From Escherichia phage ECBP2, in sequence record NC_018859.1: 64,000 nt of DNA, one strand, 5' to 3'. The notes under the pieces are model-generated. The model saw nothing but the letters and a program-made list of their open reading frames with translations, was not told the origin of the DNA and did not search any database. Positions 3,377-64,000 of this stretch are shown here, one piece after another (positions within the stretch are counted from its first letter, which is position 1; every line of letters starts with the position of its first letter). The translations under genes and the position numbers were made by a program.

Positions 3377-6300
3377 ATGGCTCTCTATCCGATTAAATCA
3401 TTAGGCGCAGTTGGGGTTATCGCTGACCAAGCACCTACTGACTTAGCACCAAATGCTTTCACTAACGCTATTAATGCTCGGTTTGTTGAGCAGAGAGTCT
3501 TTAAGACGGGGGGTAATGCCCCTCTTTCTTATGTAGACGAAGATAAAGATCTGACTCCTCTCTCGTTCCTTTCAATGCCTTTCGATTATTATAGCGCAGG
3601 TACTAGCTTCCTTGTGGTAGGTACAGATAAGAAACTGTATAAACTTACCGATGAAAGTTTAACTGATATCAGCCGTAAGGTTGCTACAGCTACGAAGAAA
3701 GCATCAGCGACAATTAAGATTTATCCAGTGGTCTCTAGTATTTCCCCTAAAGAGACTTCTGTATCCATGAACTTTAACCAGACCAAGATTCTTGAAGTTG
3801 AAGTTAAACCAGTAGATGCACAGAATGCTAACCTAGTTTGGGAAGTGAGTAACTCTTCTTATGGTAGTATCGAGGTTGACCCTACTGATTCTAAGAAAGC
3901 TACACTGACTTCTAAATCAGTTGAAGGTAATCTAGTTGTTACGGTCAGTACAGCTGACGATTCTATCTCAGCTCAGATTGCAGTTAACATCATCGATGGT
4001 GATTCTGGTATTTATCTGAGTCAAGATACACTGACTATGCGTAAAGGTGGTACTTCTACTCTTACAGCTATCACAGGTAAACCTTCTGTAACTTGGACTT
4101 CTTCTAACCCATCTTTGATTTCGGTTTCTCCTAATGCTAACACTAAGACGGTTGTTCTTACAGCTCTTGGAGAAGGACAGGCAACTATCACCGCTGACAA
4201 TGGGACAAAGACTGCATCTTGTGTAGTAACAGCGATTCCTCAGATTGATAGTATCTCATTAAGCCAGACAGATGTTCAAATGAGTCGTGGTACTCAGTAT
4301 ATCTTGACAGCAACTGTTAGCCCAGCTAATGCTCCTAACCAAGCAATCACTTGGACTTCTTCTAATACCAATATTGCTACAGTAAGTGGTACAGGTACAG
4401 AAGCTACCATCACTGGTTTGCTTGCAGGTTATACGGAGATTACAGCAGTGACAGCAGAGGGAAGTCGTTCAGCAGTTTGTACTGTTCGAGTTGACCTATC
4501 CTCTCGTTTGGCAAGTAGGGCTATGTCAGCAATGGCTATCACTACAGAAGCTCCTGTAGAAGAACCGGTTGTTGAGTCAGAAGAAGTTACTTATTTTGAC
4601 ACTGATACAATTGGTATTGATACGTCAGGGATGTCAGAAGGGAATAACTTCTACGACTACTCCAACGTTATGGACTTGGAAGGATTTGGTAGAGCAGCAA
4701 TGCTTGCTAATGATCCTCCTCTCACTGGAGTTACTCTTGATGTTATTGATGCTTCTCTTGATGTAGGTGAAGAAATTGTTATCACAGCTACAGCATCTCC
4801 TACTGGAAGTTACACTTACAAGTGGACGGTTGATAAGAGTGGTTATGTTTCTACTACCTCTACAACTAACCCTACTTTGAAACTTACTGCTATTCGTAAG
4901 GGTGAGATTAAGGTGACTTGTACTGTAAGCCAGATGGTCCAGAAAGACTATGATGCGTTTGAAGATTATCCTTGGTATCATGCGATCATCTCTAACTGTG
5001 CAGTAGCAACTACTCACTACGAAACTCCTCAGGTTAAGGAATTCGATTCTGAATACTTCACTGATCTTCCGGGATGGGGTGAACAGACAGTTGTTGATGC
5101 AGATGGCAACCCTTCTGTTAAGAAGTATAACTGGAAGTGTGAACGAGTAAGGGCTTTTAATAATAGGTTGTTTGCTCTGAATATGAGAGAGTCTAACGCT
5201 TCTGGTGTTACTACTCATTATCCTCTTCGTTTACGTTGGTCTAACTTTGCAGAGGAAAACAAGGCTCCTGAGCTTTGGGATGATTATGCATACGACCGAG
5301 CAGTAACTTCTGACCTAGCAGCTAACATCGTAGGACAGACAGAAGCTCTTGAGAATGGTTACGCAGGGTATATTGACTTGGCTGACTCTAACGGTAGTTT
5401 GTTAGATGTTCTTCCTCTGAAAGATTACCTGTTCGTGTATACTGAGTTTGAAACCTACATTGGTTCTCCTACTAACAACACCTATCAGCCTTTGATGTTT
5501 AAGAAGCTGTTTAACGATTCAGGTATCCTTGCTCCTGAATGTGTGGTGGAAGTTGAGGGTGGTCACTTTGTAGTAACTCAGAACGACGTCATTCTACATA
5601 ATGGTGCTTCTAAGAAATCTATTGCTTCTAACCGAGTGAAGAACATGCTCATTAATGAGATTTGTCTGGTGAACCCAATTGCTACACGAGTTCATCTTCA
5701 TCAGGATAAGAAAGAAGTGTGGGTTCTTTATGTAGGTCCGGGTGAACCTAAAGAAAGTTTTGCTTGTACTAAGGCAGCTGTATGGAACTACGAGTTTGAT
5801 ACTTGGTCTTTCCGTACGATTCCTTACTCTTACTGTATCGGTCTGGTTGATCCTCCTGTTCTGGAACGTGGTCCTATCTGGGCTGATTTCCAAGAGATCA
5901 CTTGGGATGACCCTTCGATTGACAAACTGGTGTGGAGAAAAGATGCAACTAACTTCCGTCAGCGAGTTACAATCATAGGTTCTTTCTTGAAAGGATTTTA
6001 CCAAGTTGATATAGGAGCTTTGGATTATATCTATGACAGAACAAATGATGTGGTTATAGAGAAGCCTCTGGAAATGAGACTAGAGAGAACGGGGATTGAT
6101 TTTGATAACGTCACTAATGAATGGAATCAGAAACACATTAACCGATTTAGACCTCAAGTAACAGGAACAGGGACTTATACTTTTGAAGCAGGTGGTAGTC
6201 AATTCTCTAATGAGTATGGACACAACCACTCTACTAAAGAGTTTAGGGTTGGTGTAGATCGTCACGTAGCAGTCAGACTGAACCATCCATACCTATTCTA

Positions 6301-29698: not shown

Positions 29699-29701
29699 TG
29701 T

Positions 29702-30439
29702 TTATGATTTTTCAGATTCCATTGCTTTAACAATAGCTTTACAGAAACCTGAACGAACAATATCATCCGATTCGCCATCTACTAGAGCGGCAAATTCAAA
29801 TAACTGGTGACGGTAGATGAAATCAGTAGCCCAATCAAGACCACTCTCACCACGCATGTCGTGCTGGTTAGTGTCCCCCATGCAGAACATCTGAGAGGTT
29901 TCACCAAGACGTGTCATGATTGAATATGCTTCATCAGGAGTAGTGTTCTGGAACTCATCAACAATCACGATAGCATCGTTGAACGAGCGACCACGTAGAT
30001 ATTCCAGAGGTACGAACTCAATATTACCATTACCTACTTGACATTCGTAGAAACCTTTACCGTAGCGCTGAGTAATAACATCAACGATTGGCATTAGGTA
30101 TGGTTCAAACTTCTCACGAAGCCCACCGGGAAGTAATCCAAGACTATTACCCATACCAACAGCAGGTCGGCTTAGGATAATCTTCTCAATCTTCCCACTC
30201 TTCAGAGCATCAATCACTGTAGAAGTGATTACGAAGGTCTTACCACAACCAGCAGGAGCATCTGTGAATACAACCTGTTTGGTTTTAATTGCATCAAGCA
30301 GCTCACTCTGGAATTGGTTCTGAGGTACTACCGGCTTAGCAAGAACTACTTCTTCAAATTCCCGCTTTCCTTTCTTGGTGACGAGAGCTTCACGACGTAA
30401 TTCTCTCCGTGACGCTTTCCGAGATTCTCTACGACTCAT
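29702..30439 (-). CDS. phoH: PhoH-like ATPase
   Basis: Walker A PAGCGKTFVITSTVIDAL and PhoH-typical overall layout. Confidence 0.8.
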   Translation of the reverse strand: MSRRESRKASRRELRREALVTKKGKREFEEVVLAKPVVPQNQFQSELLDAIKTKQVVFTDAPAGCGKTFVITSTVIDALKSGKIEKIILSRPAVGMGNSLGLLPGGLREKFEPYLMPIVDVITQRYGKGFYECQVGNGNIEFVPLEYLRGRSFNDAIVIVDEFQNTTPDEAYSIMTRLGETSQMFCMGDTNQHDMRGESGLDWATDFIYRHQLFEFAALVDGESDDIVRSGFCKAIVKAMESEKS

Positions 30440-59797: not shown

Positions 59798-60706
59798 TTA
59801 TGCTGCCTGACGTGCTGCCATAATCTCAGCCGCTTTACGCAATACTTCTTCCTCTTCTTCTTTCGCAGCTTGTTCGGTACGGGTAGCAACCGTTGAAGAG
59901 ATACGACCGCGCAGGCTTTCTAACTTCTCCTGCATTTTGGCAATGGTGGATTCCATTTCATCGGCATACGAATCCAGTGATTCCAGTTCCTTGCTTGATG
60001 CGTTCATCAGATAATCATCAGAGATCGCTACCGTTGAAGCCGTGACTTTCTTGATGAGTGAGTCAAAAGACTTCTTAACCTTGCCTACTTCTTCACTCAG
60101 GGCAATAGTATTATCACTGGTAGCGCCGTTACGTTCATCAGCCAATAATTTTGCTTCAATACGGATTGCATTTAAGCGTTCAACCAAAGCGTAAATATCT
60201 TGGTTAAAATCTTCCTTGTTTTTCGCCGGGATTTGCAGGTGTGCCGCCACGTTGTCATTGCAACCCTTGTAAAAGTTAGGGTTATCTACTTCAATTTCAC
60301 GACCTAACGCAAAGTTTTCGAAAGCGTTCGACCAGCGAGCGCGATTCTGTTCCATTTTGGCCTTAATTTGCGCTTCTTTCGCATCTTCTTTCGCTTTCGC
60401 TTCACCTTCCAGATTAATCCACTTTTTACGACCGTTTGCCGCATCGGTGTTAAACTTGACAGGAGTCAGGAAAGTGATTGCAGTGGCGATCACATCCATA
60501 TCACGAAAACGCTCGGTTAACAGAAAATCGACCGCCGCCTGCAATACGTCTAACTTTTTACCGTTGCTGCGGAAGTGCTGCAAATGACCTAACAGAAAAT
60601 TAGAAACATCTTGCTTAATCGCCGCGTTATTGCTACGAATGTTGTTAGCCAGTGCGTTAAAACCAGACTCTTTTACCAGATTAAAAATTTTAGCCATGAT
60701 ATTCAC
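59798..60706 (-). CDS. coiled-coil hypothetical protein (first gene of the - arm)
   Basis: 302-aa ORF; Ala/Glu/Lys-rich; visibly more GC-rich than downstream genes. Confidence 0.5.
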   Translation of the reverse strand: MNIMAKIFNLVKESGFNALANNIRSNNAAIKQDVSNFLLGHLQHFRSNGKKLDVLQAAVDFLLTERFRDMDVIATAITFLTPVKFNTDAANGRKKWINLEGEAKAKEDAKEAQIKAKMEQNRARWSNAFENFALGREIEVDNPNFYKGCNDNVAAHLQIPAKNKEDFNQDIYALVERLNAIRIEAKLLADERNGATSDNTIALSEEVGKVKKSFDSLIKKVTASTVAISDDYLMNASSKELESLDSYADEMESTIAKMQEKLESLRGRISSTVATRTEQAAKEEEEEVLRKAAEIMAARQAA

Positions 60707-61499
60707 CTTTCAATTGTAAGGGCACTATGCCCCGCTCTCTATGAGCTTTTTAAGTCGCCATTGACTTATCAATATCCACTCATTGTTAAGTAATTATTGA
60801 TAAGTGGGGCGGTCTTATCAGAAGTTAACCTTGCCGCCCCTTTATCTGTGATGTTTCATCTGGTATCTTTAATTAGTCGCTATAAACGAAGCCGACCTGA
60901 TAGCGATGATCAATCATCACAATAAGGCAGTGCGTCCGACTCTAATTAGTTACTTTATTGTAACCGTCGGCAATATCGTCTACTTTGCTTTCGCTCTCGC
61001 CTATCCTTTTATACTAACTCTCAATCGCTAACCATCGCCCACTACGGGAGGTTATTGCGAAAGAGTCATTAGCCGTCTAATATTCCGACGTTTTATATCT
61101 TTCGGCAAGTTTACTACATAACCCGACTATGTACTTTCATCTTATGATGAATCTCAAGCCGTTCACATCGTAAACGTTCACACTAAACCTTATTGTTAAA
61201 TAGCAATTTGCCACTTTTTAACCACTCCCCGCCGCTCTCAATTGAGCGTTAATTCGTCGGACTTGCCTACCCTGATTAACTTCTTTCACTGTAGCACCAT
61301 GTTAGCGATGGCCGCCGCTACCCTTAACCGTGGGCGATTAGCTTAAGCCTTTGCGTGTACTCAATGAATCCGTTTATCAGTGGTGACTTTTCCAGTAAGG
61401 GAATGTAAAACTGTTTACCCTGATATTTTAGGGAGTTTTACGCCGTTTTATCTGGTATGCTGTCCGATGGTTATTATCTTCCAGCATATTTAACCGATA

Positions 61500-62470
61500 T
61501 AGGAGAATGTTTAAATTGTTAAAGAGCGGTAAATCTATCAACGTGCTTTCTCACGTTATGCAACTGTTAGCCGTTGTTACGCTTTTCACTGAAGCGGTGA
61601 TTTGCTCAAGTGATGCTCATTATGGACCATGTTGTTTTTGCCGTCAATCACTTTTTTAATCTTTTTCGTCGTTCCCGCTATTGGGAGGATATATCAACCC
61701 GCTTTATTGGGTTGAAGATTAAGCGATGAGGCTTAACCCATGATTCATATTGTTAAAGAGCGTTTAGCCTTTTATAGTGTCTGCTAATCACTACATCATT
61801 AAAGGCTTACTTGTTCATTAACGGGGCGCCTAAGCCCGAACTACCCGCTGCACTATGTGCCACCTTTCCCGCGATACGTTGATTTGGGAACTAGTTAACG
61901 TTGTTTTGTTAACTTGTGGTTAGTATGGACTACCTTAACCACGTTTGCAACCTCTTTTTTATCATCTTCTTTTATTCTTTTCCCTTATCTCGCGTGAATC
62001 TATGCGAAAGGGCAAGATGATAAGTCTGATTTGTCTTTTAGGAATCTAGTGCGCTTTCAAGCATTGACCATTTGAAAGTATCGAACAAATGAGGCTTATT
62101 TTGTTGCTCATCGTCCGCATGTTCACGTATGAATCAGGAATCAATTCTAGTGGTCAACTAAGCGCCTTATAGTAATGACGTTCCCGCCACCTGTAAGACA
62201 AATCATATTTTTAAAGAGCGGGATTTTTCAAGTCATCGCTGACTATGCTCACTATATATCAGGCTTTTTCCGGTGTCAATACTCTTTTTCAAGTATTTTC
62301 ACTTTCTAGCCTGATTTTTAAAGAGCGGGGCAATTTCTTGCCTTGTATGTTTTACATCGTACCCGATGAAATGAAGTATACATTAATCAGATGAGGTTGC
62401 AATAGGGTAAAGCAAATTATTTTAAACTTTTTCACTATAGGGAGGTAAAAGAGCGGGCGCACGTGATACA
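61500..62470. repeat. dispersed copies of an AAAGAGCG(G) motif in a non-coding region
   Basis: TTAAAGAGCGG-like sites at about 61515, 61753, 62214, 62325 and 62449, plus 63701; no ORF of 60 aa or more between 60793 and 62352. Confidence 0.45.
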
Positions 62471-62558
62471 TCATAGGAAACGGCTTGTAAAGCGATAAAA
62501 AGCGGCCTGAAACGCACTGTAGCGAGCTAAAAGGGAGTAAGGTATACAATCACCTTAG

Positions 62559-62586
62559 AAAAGAAAAAAGCCTCATAGCGAGGCTT
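62559..62586 (-). terminator. rho-independent terminator
   Basis: AAGCCTC-GCTAT-GAGGCTT hairpin + U-run on the - strand. Confidence 0.5.
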
Positions 62587-62664
62587 ATAAGAAGGGTTTA
62601 AAACATCAGATAGATTATGACCATAGGCATGACCACGGCACAATAAAGAAGGAAGATCAGTCCT

Positions 62665-62772
62665 ATGGATTTAAGCATTACCCATAGCCGATAGTAAAAC
62701 ACCCAGCAGGAGAACGACCAGAAAAAACCCTACAACCGTTTTAATGATGAATTTAATAAACCACATAGCCAT
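62665..62772 (-). CDS. small hydrophobic peptide (35 aa, below track cut-off)
   Basis: MAMWFIKFIIKTVVGFFLVVLLLGVLLSAMGNA behind an AAGAGG RBS. Confidence 0.3.
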
Positions 62773-62860
62773 AAACCTCTTTAATTAAAGGATGTAAGAA
62801 TAAAGCATATCAGCGACGAATAACGCCACTGTAACGACGAATAAGCACCGCCAAAAATAA

Positions 62861-63127
62861 TCATTCCCCATTTATATCACCCTCAATCAGCCCATGATTT
62901 AGCAGGTTAGCAAGTGATAATCCACCGTCAAAATATATAGAACGAAAATCATCGCGGGTAATTTCAAAATCAGCAAAGGCTAGCCAATCTTTAAGAGGCT
63001 GATATTCCATCCTGCAAAAAGTGATAACAGGTAACGTTATCTGACCATCAAGTGTGTTAAACATGATAGATTGCTCGCCAACAAAACAAGAAAAGCCGTT
63101 TGATAATTTAACTTCTTTAATAGCCAT
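62861..63127 (-). CDS. hypothetical protein
   Basis: 88-aa ORF downstream of 63154-63645. Confidence 0.4.
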   Translation of the reverse strand: MAIKEVKLSNGFSCFVGEQSIMFNTLDGQITLPVITFCRMEYQPLKDWLAFADFEITRDDFRSIYFDGGLSLANLLNHGLIEGDINGE

Positions 63128-63153
63128 TATTTATACTCCAAAAAATAGATTAT

Positions 63154-63645
63154 TTACTTACTAGCCTTAATGCAGTTGGCTAAATTAACGTGAACGGTAT
63201 AAACAGCGTTATCAGCGTTATTATAAACGGTAGTCGCAAGCATTGATTCGTTCATCGGGCCATAACTGACCAGATTCGTGACAGCTTTCGCATGGCTGTA
63301 ACGTTGTACAGTGCCAAATGTAACTAGTTCAGGATCGTTATCAGTACGCTTGAGAACTAGATCACTGTTAGGCTGATTGTCTAGTGTTTTGGTACTAACG
63401 ACCAGACCATCACGGGAAACGTTACTGAATTTAACTTTTAACACGATTTGATTGGTGTCACTATCCGCACCGTTACAAATCAGCCAACCTTTATTGATGG
63501 AACTAGCGAAAACGTCAGCGGCATTAGTTGCAGGAGCAGGACTAGCGATAGCCTTATCAGAAAGAGAAGTTACCAGTGTACTAACACCGATCGCGGCGAC
63601 TAGCGCATAACTTGCCAGATTAATAGCCTGCATTACTTTCGCCAT
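63154..63645 (-). CDS. secreted protein
   Basis: Signal peptide MAKVMQAINLASYALVAAIGVSTLVTSLSDKAIA; AAGGAG RBS; TTGTCG-N16-TATAGT sigma70-like promoter upstream. Confidence 0.5.
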   Translation of the reverse strand: MAKVMQAINLASYALVAAIGVSTLVTSLSDKAIASPAPATNAADVFASSINKGWLICNGADSDTNQIVLKVKFSNVSRDGLVVSTKTLDNQPNSDLVLKRTDNDPELVTFGTVQRYSHAKAVTNLVSYGPMNESMLATTVYNNADNAVYTVHVNLANCIKASK

Positions 63646-64000
63646 TTTTGTTACTCCTTAGGTAGAATCAATTAACTATTGCCAACTATATAATAAAAGG
63701 AAAGAGCGACAACTATTTATTTTTAGCTTTCTTATAACTCACTGAATCTTAAAGAAATTTAATTTACTAACTTCTCTCATTCAGGGCATAGCTTACTACT
63801 TCTATTGTTACTTTATAACATAACGCCAGACCGACGGGGAGAACGTGCCGCATAAACAGACCTACGGGGCAACGGTACAACGTAACCAGCACGGGGGAAG
63901 GATAAACGGGTAACCTATAATGTATGTTGTTACATGATGCTATTGTTAGCGGCTTGCGGGGATAATATACCAATCAAATAATTAACCCATCAAACTATCA

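Follow-up and report, generated by a model that had tools for sequence, protein, structure and literature searches.

BoxA-dependent antitermination is textbook knowledge for the ribosomal RNA (rrn) operons of Escherichia coli and for phage lambda, and the consensus BoxA is the site of the NusB/S10 (NusE) dimer in the E. coli rrn leaders, the lambda nut sites and the early leader of phage T7. The gamma-proteobacterial BoxA consensus is GYTCTTTAANA (Baniulyte et al., PMC5725501); the rrn BoxA has been given as UGCUCUUUA, the lambda BoxA as CGCUCUUA and the BoxA-spacer segment of lambda nutL as cgcucuuaaaaauuaa (PMC2724277). BoxA also shields long untranslated CRISPR transcripts from Rho (PMC7665894), and a BoxA near a ribosome-binding site can affect translation (PMC5725501). 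In the T7 genome (NC_001604), we found CGCTCTTTAACAA at 812-824 within GACGCTCTTTAACAATCTGG (810-829), which lies 63 nucleotides (nt) after the A3 start and before gene 0.3; this BoxA is not annotated in the record. According to the passage of PMC3709561 that cites Savalia et al. 2010, mutations in the T7 BoxA make Gp2 dispensable.

Here, we describe a gene-free region (60698-62567) of Escherichia phage ECBP2 (NC_018859.1), a phiEco32-like coliphage of the Gordonclarkvirinae, of which one strand of 64,000 nt was analysed (hereafter the window). The motif repeated in this region is, judged by its sequence, the consensus BoxA read on the opposite strand. Moreover, most of the region is conserved structured RNA, a fact that was overlooked in a preliminary description made from the letters of the window. 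The region is probably an rrn-like leader for antitermination and RNA folding.

The repeated motif and its promoters

Read on the - strand, from which the early genes are transcribed, the + strand motif TTAAAGAGCG(G) becomes its reverse complement, CGCTCTTTAA[A/C]AA, and the - strand RNA accordingly reads CGCUCUUUAA(A/C)AAU. The string AAAGAGCG was found 7 times in the 64 kb, against 1.77 expected, and none of 100 shuffled sequences reached this number. Six of these copies are on the + strand (61521, 61755, 62213, 62320, 62448 and 63701), the first five of them inside the region, and a repeat finder recovered the same motif family with 5-6 copies. A search with GYTCTTTAANA gave 7 matches in the window (0.6 expected), including four perfect ones on the - strand within 810 bp of the region (61517-27, 61751-61, 62209-19 and 62316-26; named BoxA-D, BoxA-C, BoxA-B and BoxA-A, respectively). 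As a positive control, the same search recovered the true BoxA of the E. coli rrsH leader, which contains TGCTCTTTAACAATTTATCAG when read directly. The resemblance extends beyond the consensus itself: of the 17 positions of TGCTCTTTAACAATTTA, the E. coli rrn BoxA with its spacer, 16 are the same in BoxA-D, which is invariant in 19 phages save for one C/T position, and BoxA-A and BoxA-B are similar to the nutL BoxA-spacer. The 22 nt CGCTCTTTAACAATATGAATCA, which comprise BoxA-C and the bases following it at the start of unit C, are identical in the unclassified phage PJNS034 and in its Pantoea relative TacPo2.

The conservation of the motif was then compared among 19 Gordonclarkvirinae phages. 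The 9-mer GCTCTTTAA occurs in the region of these phages 80 times on the - strand and not once on the + strand. Outside this 9-mer, by which the copies were picked, the information content reaches 2 bits at the A located two bases after it and 1.9 bits at the A that follows, compared with about 0.3 bits in most of the flanks. BoxA is thus kept across the relatives while the flanking bases diverge. The relatives carry 3-6 copies each and differ by whole modules.

All BoxA copies of the region are sense to the flanking - strand genes and have predicted, conserved promoters upstream. A promoter scan gave two early sigma-70 promoters, P2 (which reads TTGACACC...CATAAT at the same position in relatives) and P3, the latter kept in 19/19 relatives at about -945 to -959 from the ATG of the gp124 homologue. 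The homologous P2/P3 sequences of phage SU10 have been predicted as sigma-70 early promoters in the spacer between its coding sequences CDS120 and CDS121 (SU10 paper, S2 table), and its authors state that phiEco32 is arranged likewise. The distance from the predicted P2 start to BoxA-B is about 25-30 nt, compared with about 33 nt from rrn P2 to its BoxA, while the predicted P3 start and BoxA-D are about 85-95 nt apart with three hairpins between them.

Two of the copies lie inside promoter-like sites, namely BoxA-B in TTGAAA-18-TATGAT (62231-62202) and the 63701 copy, outside the region, in the -35/spacer of an upstream promoter (63712-63685), as would be expected if the motif were a part of early promoters, either a spacer or a -35-proximal element. 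This explanation is scarcely credible. The TTGAAA at 62231 is not kept (GTGAAA, TCAAAA or ACGAAG in relatives), whereas BoxA is, which indicates that the motif is an RNA element downstream of promoters and not a promoter part. In addition, the well-conserved P2 and P3 do not contain the motif, the 63701 copy is missing from the homologous SU10 promoter, and promoter-like sites are not in excess in the region (13, compared with 11.8 in shuffles).

A motif that recurs 5-6 times in a gene-free stretch might also represent DNA sites, that is, origin iterons or operators for a DNA-binding regulator of the phage or its host, and phage origins and control regions often have this appearance. We consider this very improbable. 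All 80 copies in the 19 phages are on one strand, their spacing in the window is irregular (107, 458 and 234 bp), the motif is an RNA-level consensus located downstream of promoters, and neither an AT-rich unwinding tract nor a skew switch is present. The compensatory base-pair changes and the 11% G-U pairs around the motif (see below) also point to selection on RNA rather than on duplex DNA. Thus, the preliminary description was right in counting at least five copies (five in the region plus that at 63701) and in expecting early promoters here, but the motif itself is not supported as a promoter, a regulator-binding DNA site, an origin iteron or a terminus; by its sequence, it is a BoxA RNA consensus downstream of promoters. 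An origin or a genome terminus is also disfavoured for the region, as GC content and skew are unremarkable and the linear record of phiEco32 ends about 2.9 kb beyond it.

Several further observations concern transcription signals. The exact phage sigma (gp36) promoter element TAATGTATA is found here only in the window, KBNP1711 and Bas90 among the 19 relatives, and may add middle/late transcription of the region in that lineage. PJNS034 (about 2850-2890) and TacPo2 have, on the - strand, the P3-like promoters TATAATGAGCGCCATCG or TATAATGAGCGCCAAC, which resemble the -10 plus discriminator of E. coli rrn P1, TATAATGCGCCTCCATCG. On the + strand, CACTATAGGGAGG (62434-62446) is the complement of CCTCCCTATAGTG, which follows a degenerate BoxA copy; it equals the core of the T7 class III promoter at 12/12 positions. 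These phages are not known to encode a single-subunit RNA polymerase, and this match to a T7-type promoter is probably due to chance.

The structured RNA and its BoxA-linked domains

Between the predicted P3 start and the gp124 start codon lies a structured leader RNA of about 915 nt. RNAalifold predicted 251 pairs from the 19 aligned sequences, 77 of them with compensatory double changes. In an independent count on the same 19 sequences, 98.8% of the cells form a standard pair, compared with 93.4% in shuffles; the 77 pairs with a double change compare with 34.2 +/- 3.3 in shuffles, none of 500 reaching 77, and sliding the 3' partners by 1-3 columns leaves only 7-13 such pairs. G-U makes up 11% of the paired cells, and the consensus fold is better in the sense than in the antisense direction (-252 vs -175 kcal/mol), indicating that selection acts on the - strand RNA. 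The z-score of the single-sequence minimum free energy is -8.5. Furthermore, the mean pairwise identity is higher over the 925 nt upstream of the ATG (86.5%) than in gp124 itself (82.9%). The variable sites are spread evenly over the three phases in the 925-nt stretch (135/139/147), compared with 82/55/244 in gp124, and this absence of codon periodicity argues against small ORFs (open reading frames) in the tested 925 nt. A missed protein gene was rejected on the same ground and because the small annotated ORFs are mutually inconsistent. Such 'hypothetical protein' ORFs, one of them 'cathepsin L-like', fill the region in the records 101114UKE3, Paul and NJ01.

Within this RNA, helix H5 closes a domain of about 300 nt and covaries, with double changes in three pairs. 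Upstream of it, H3 (61539-61558) is a boxB-like hairpin 10 nt before BoxA-D, which has a conserved apical GAGAAAG and double changes in 3/7 pairs. At the 3' end, the Shine-Dalgarno region of gp124 has the predicted partner AUUUACCGCUC, a strand that runs into the first BoxA-D bases; the predicted helix H4 formed by the two would close the whole RNA. On this model, gp124 translation may be controlled by a helix over its ribosome-binding site. Two - strand copies of ATACCAGATRAAAC (60853-60866 and 61445-61458; 0.03 expected), which account for the 'TTTATCTGGTAT' repeats noticed previously, are almost invariant in the 19 phages. The two copies belong to different domains of the large RNA, and a role in protein binding or in a tertiary contact is conceivable.

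BoxA and RNA structure are coupled throughout the region, and in each unit BoxA directly precedes the 5' strand of a domain-closing helix. This coupling is best supported at two sites. One is BoxA-D, followed by H5 (unit D). The other is module B, a structured RNA of about 185 nt, whose stem of AUUUGUCUUACAGG (62190-62203) and CCUAAAAGACAAAU (62029-62042) encloses about 150 nt, begins 4 nt past the 13-nt BoxA-B and covaries. In an alignment of eight versions including those of PJNS034 and TH42, module B shows 52 pairs with 97.3% of the cells paired, and 12 pairs with double changes, compared with 5.0 +/- 1.5 in shuffles and 1-3 with slid partners. In units A, C and E, the helix strand after BoxA was recognised by inspection. 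In unit A, the hairpin AAUACUUGAAAAAGAGUAUU is enclosed by a putative stem of AUCAGGCU (62308-62315) and AGCCUGAU (62258-62265), whose 3' strand overlaps the P2 spacer. Unit E shows 93-97% identity without gaps in the 19 phages, and BoxA directly abuts it in SU7, PAS59, TH42 and LAMP. The pairing of unit C is a perfect 10-bp AUGAUUCAUA in most relatives and contains one mismatch and one G-U in the window; PJNS034 and TacPo2 retain the complementarity with the register shifted, and the covariation of the unit is weak (1 double change in 20 pairs). Two degenerate BoxA-like copies inside the large RNA follow the same rule. The element at 61188-61205 is a BoxA with a C-to-A change as in the lambda boxA16 mutant (sequence in PMC2724277), and helix H21 takes its 5' strand from the 3' part of this element; the second copy (61051-61067) is likewise followed by a helix strand.

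The core of module B is common to the unrelated phages PJNS034 and TH42. A BLAST comparison of 62034-62220 with PJNS034 (unclassified, 65.7 kb) gave 73% identity over 193 bp, and the PJNS034 copy is located within a gene-free gap of 1.8 kb that precedes early genes. PJNS034 and TacPo2 represent a second lineage with the same layout, each with its own gene-free gap (1.6-1.8 kb) upstream of early genes, a P3-like promoter and a leader. The predicted pairs of this leader are changed on both sides in 20/100 cases, which is weak evidence because only two sequences are compared. Pattern scans for module B in IMG/VR and metagenomes found only close Gordonclarkvirinae, and none was found in 185,579 bacterial genomes. 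A profile hidden Markov model of the large RNA had no match elsewhere in the window, in PJNS034 and TacPo2, in the initial 2 kb of T7, or in Salmonella phage 7-11, a distant relative whose right end contains no BoxA. Since the BoxA copies of units A-E and the two degenerate copies inside the large RNA all precede helix strands, and since relatives differ by modules, the region looks like an array of BoxA-plus-closed-domain modules that have been duplicated, lost and swapped. In a third kind of viral contig (IMG/VR UViG_3300036802_000026, 48 kb), the same 21-nt GCTCTTTAACAATATGAATCA was observed on the - strand at 4259-4279, about 290 nt upstream of leftward ORFs at a divergent gene junction.

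The structures around BoxA also bear on whether the copies are nut sites of the lambda type, at which BoxA would act only together with a phage N-like protein on an adjacent hairpin and intrinsic terminators of the early cluster would be suppressed as well. The first base of the motif is C as in the lambda BoxA, the spacers of BoxA-A and BoxA-B are nutL-like, the conserved and covarying H3 is close to BoxA-D, and intrinsic terminators exist downstream (e.g., 59775-59748). Nevertheless, this alternative is improbable: the hairpin precedes BoxA as in rrn, whereas that of lambda follows it, and each BoxA is followed by the strand of a long-range helix, not by a short boxB hairpin. A search of the early ORFs for an arginine-rich N-terminus gave no candidate, although a divergent N analogue is possible. 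A 245-aa (amino acid) ORF with the arginine-rich start MSRRESRKASRRELRRE (about 29700-30439, - strand) lies in the middle of the genome and not in the early region.

Genomic setting and searches

The coordinates of the features are collected in Table 1. The region starts just after the ATG (60697) of the gp124 homologue, ends at the terminator of the upstream early operon and contains no gene; it is the largest stretch of the window without any ORF of at least 70 aa. The gene-free stretch of the preliminary description is therefore real and even slightly larger than proposed, with the caveat of a 65-aa ORF starting with TTG (62352-62549, - strand), which is not kept as an ORF in relatives. No coding sequence is annotated across the homologous region in KBNP1711, Bas90, SU10 or phiEco32. 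The closest match of 60700-62600 is Escherichia phage KBNP1711 (Gordonclarkvirinae, Nieuwekanaalvirus), with 96.4% identity, and phiEco32, SU10 and several BASEL phages are 85-92% identical to the region. Conservation in related genomes, a point raised in the same description, is thus evident, as the region is matched by 96-97 phage records, 75 of which span at least 80% of it. The two GGGAGGT...AAAGAG variants described there were also found, at 61046-61066 and 62437-62455.

In phiEco32, the corresponding gap measures 1,944 bp and lies between genes 124 and 125. The gap is flanked on either side by - strand genes, the downstream one being the 299-aa gp124 homologue, which has no assigned function; for gp124 and the upstream ORFs, Pfam and PHROG gave no informative function. 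Upstream, a short early operon (62671-63645, - strand) has a promoter and a terminator of its own and, as read from its sequence, a leader of about 30 nt without BoxA before its translated part. The region was previously placed directly upstream of the first early gene, but this early operon lies further upstream. Compared with phiEco32, about 260 bp covering most of gene 125 are missing from the window: 62561-62679 aligns to phiEco32 4841-4959, and 62679-62866 to phiEco32 5221-5406.

Table 1. Features of the gene-free region and its borders (positions in the window; all on the - strand).
Feature	Position	Remarks
Structured leader RNA, ~915 nt	60698..61612	P3 start to gp124 start codon; alignment A1, 19 phages
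gp124 Shine-Dalgarno region, GAAAGGUGAAU	60701..60711	predicted partner AUUUACCGCUC at 61524-61534
3' hairpin series	60719-60918	after domain II
Domain II, ~280 nt	60919-61196	closed by helix H21
Degenerate BoxA-like element, TGCTATTTAACAATAAGG	61188..61205	invariant in 19 phages; repeat families D1, D3
Domain I	61217-61515	closed by helix H5, which begins directly after BoxA-D
Unit D		helix H5/domain I; covariation support
BoxA-D, CGCTCTTTAACAATTTA	61512..61528	GYTCTTTAANA match
Leader hairpins H1-H3	61539..61596	between P3 and BoxA-D
Predicted early sigma-70 promoter P3	61619..61647	TTGACG-17-CATAAT; promoter scan; predicted start ~61612
Unit C	61621..61749	UAUGAAUCAU (61740-61749), directly after BoxA-C, complementary to P3 spacer/-10 (61621-61630)
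BoxA-C, CGCTCTTTAACAATATG	61746..61762	GYTCTTTAANA match
Variable insert	61770..61950	only in a minority of relatives; gap fraction 0.6-0.84 in 19-genome alignment
Unit E, hairpin domain	61955..62026	closed by UUAUCAUCUU (62014-62023) with AAGAUGAUAA (61959-61968); consensus fold
Module B, structured RNA, ~185 nt	62027..62206	alignment A2
BoxA-B, CGCTCTTTAAAAAT	62207..62220	GYTCTTTAANA match
Predicted early sigma-70 promoter P2	62251..62279	TTGACA-17-TATAGT (11/12 consensus); promoter scan; predicted start ~62244
Unit A, small closed RNA domain	62258..62315	read from sequence only
BoxA-A, CGCTCTTTAAAAAT	62314..62327	GYTCTTTAANA match; kept in relatives, upstream bases vary
Phage sigma (gp36) promoter element, TAATGTATA	62377..62385	exact; upstream of BoxA-A
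Degenerate BoxA-like copy, CGCTCTTTTACC	62444..62455	off consensus at two positions; only window, Bas90, O18-011, NJ01
Intrinsic terminator of upstream early operon	62568..62586	8-bp stem, then TTTTTCTTTTC; annotated as terminator in SU10

The region was also compared with known RNA families and with host genomes. Rfam 15, whose families include GOLLD, ROOL, 6S, transfer-messenger RNA (tmRNA) and riboswitches, was searched on both strands with lenient thresholds (E up to 10); the best hits had 13-21 bits (E 1.4-3.5), far below the gathering scores. ARAGORN detected no transfer RNA or tmRNA in the region. No homology to the region was found in 5,426 E. coli genomes, indicating that it is not derived from the host or a prophage.

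Proposed mechanism and comparison with known systems

The reading that we consider probable is that of an rrn-like leader for antitermination and RNA folding. Host sigma-70 RNA polymerase would start at the near-consensus P2 and P3, and a BoxA would be exposed in the nascent RNA within about 25-95 nt. NusB-S10, together with NusA, NusG and SuhB, would then turn the polymerase into a Rho-resistant, RNA-chaperoning form, such as is found at the rrn operons and in the T7 early leader. The modified polymerase would pass 0.9-1.5 kb of untranslated RNA and continue into gp124 and a long run of small early genes. Because the 5' strand of a helix adjoins each BoxA, a tethered BoxA would hold this strand at the RNA exit until its partner emerges, in line with the model put forward for the leader-trailer helix of rrn. 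In this way, module B (185 nt) and the 300-nt and 280-nt domains of the 915-nt leader would fold in an ordered manner. Nus-factor binding, antitermination and chaperoned folding are inferred here from the rrn, lambda, CRISPR-array and T7 precedents.

Several points weigh against this reading. Promoter use, like Nus-factor binding, is inferred, and four copies exceed what antitermination alone seems to need. Helix H4 is predicted and unproven because it shows no compensatory change: of its 9 pairs, 7 are invariant, one has a one-sided change (U-G to U-A), and the remaining one fails to form in two sequences. A composition scan (C over G), itself uninformative, gave no obvious C-rich, G-poor Rho-loading tract, so that the need for protection from Rho is an assumption. 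Finally, no mention of BoxA was found in the papers examined that name phiEco32, Kuravirus, Gordonclarkvirinae or SU10; an earlier mention, most likely in Savalia 2008 or Pavlova 2012, is possible.

The number of copies raises the question of whether they are mainly decoys, with the early RNA titrating NusB-S10, and perhaps S4/SuhB, away from rrn operons or lambdoid prophages and thereby aiding host shut-off. Four consensus copies per transcript behind strong promoters, beyond what antitermination in cis needs, would suit such a role, and Friedman and colleagues reportedly found in 1990 that BoxA transcripts compete for a host factor in lambda. Nevertheless, we regard this explanation as unlikely, because a pure decoy would have no use for the helix strand and folded domain to which each copy is linked, and T7 has one copy only; a decoy effect would also be compatible with the cis mechanism. 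More tentatively, the region can be conceived of as a phage 'pseudo-rRNA operon', in which the antitermination/chaperone machinery of the host rrn operons makes large structured RNAs that act in trans during host takeover; this possibility is weaker than that of the leader. These RNAs, namely the mobile module B (185 nt) and the 915-nt leader, which contains the domains of about 300 and 280 nt, may accumulate and be more than an mRNA leader, and they may, for instance, act as decoys of ribosomal proteins, Nus proteins, RNases or defences that sense RNA.

These findings are of interest in several respects. A common, therapeutically used coliphage subfamily carries multi-copy BoxA, and the joining of each BoxA to a folded domain offers a natural test bed for the Nus complex as a co-transcriptional RNA chaperone. 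The covarying RNA of about 0.9 kb and the 185-nt module are annotated in no database, and such sizes are rare in bacteria and phages. Since an E. coli K-12 host with restored O-antigen supports the growth of members of the group (Bas86-Bas94 of the BASEL collection), the predictions are testable by standard genetics. Annotators should take care not to place small hypothetical ORFs in this 'empty' stretch of 1.9 kb, as has been done in several records.

In comparison with known systems, the E. coli rrn leader (boxB-boxA-boxC, rrnTAC) shares most with the region: the near-identical BoxA-D plus spacer, a strong sigma-70 promoter (predicted in the phage) about 30-95 nt upstream, a hairpin before BoxA and a long-range helix strand after it (H3/H5 at BoxA-D; the module B stem), and a long, untranslated and highly structured downstream RNA. 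In contrast to the rrn operons, the phage region does not encode rRNA, and no similarity of its product to host sequence was detected; four BoxA copies stand in series instead of one per promoter pair, the domains measure 60-300 nt rather than 1.5 kb, and the transcript runs into protein genes. Among virulent phages, T7 is the closest precedent. Its early leader (A1-A3, BoxA, RNase III site R0.3, gene 0.3) likewise belongs to a virulent podophage and contains several strong promoters for the host polymerase (predicted ones in the phage described here), after which a consensus BoxA and structured RNA precede the first gene. However, T7 has a single BoxA and a leader of about 100 nt after it, whereas here BoxA is present in four copies, each coupled to a folded domain, and the conserved structured RNA extends over 0.9-1.5 kb; the two share no homology beyond BoxA.

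The lambda nutL/nutR sites have in common with the region the BoxA core CGCUCUU(U)A, an A-rich, nutL-like spacer and a position in early transcripts made (here by prediction) by the host polymerase. Their BoxA has one U fewer and requires N on a downstream boxB, whereas here neither a downstream boxB nor an N-like ORF was found. CRISPR arrays and the suhB leader, which are Nus-factor targets other than rRNA, also have a consensus BoxA at the start of a long untranslated RNA, where it counters Rho, but each of these cellular BoxA elements occurs singly and adjoins no large conserved RNA domain. The large 'ornate' RNAs GOLLD and ROOL, in turn, resemble the leader in being several hundred nt long, with many covarying helices, a phage context and no assigned function. 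Unlike them, the RNA described here has no Rfam match, forms the 5' leader of an E. coli phage mRNA and is coupled to BoxA.

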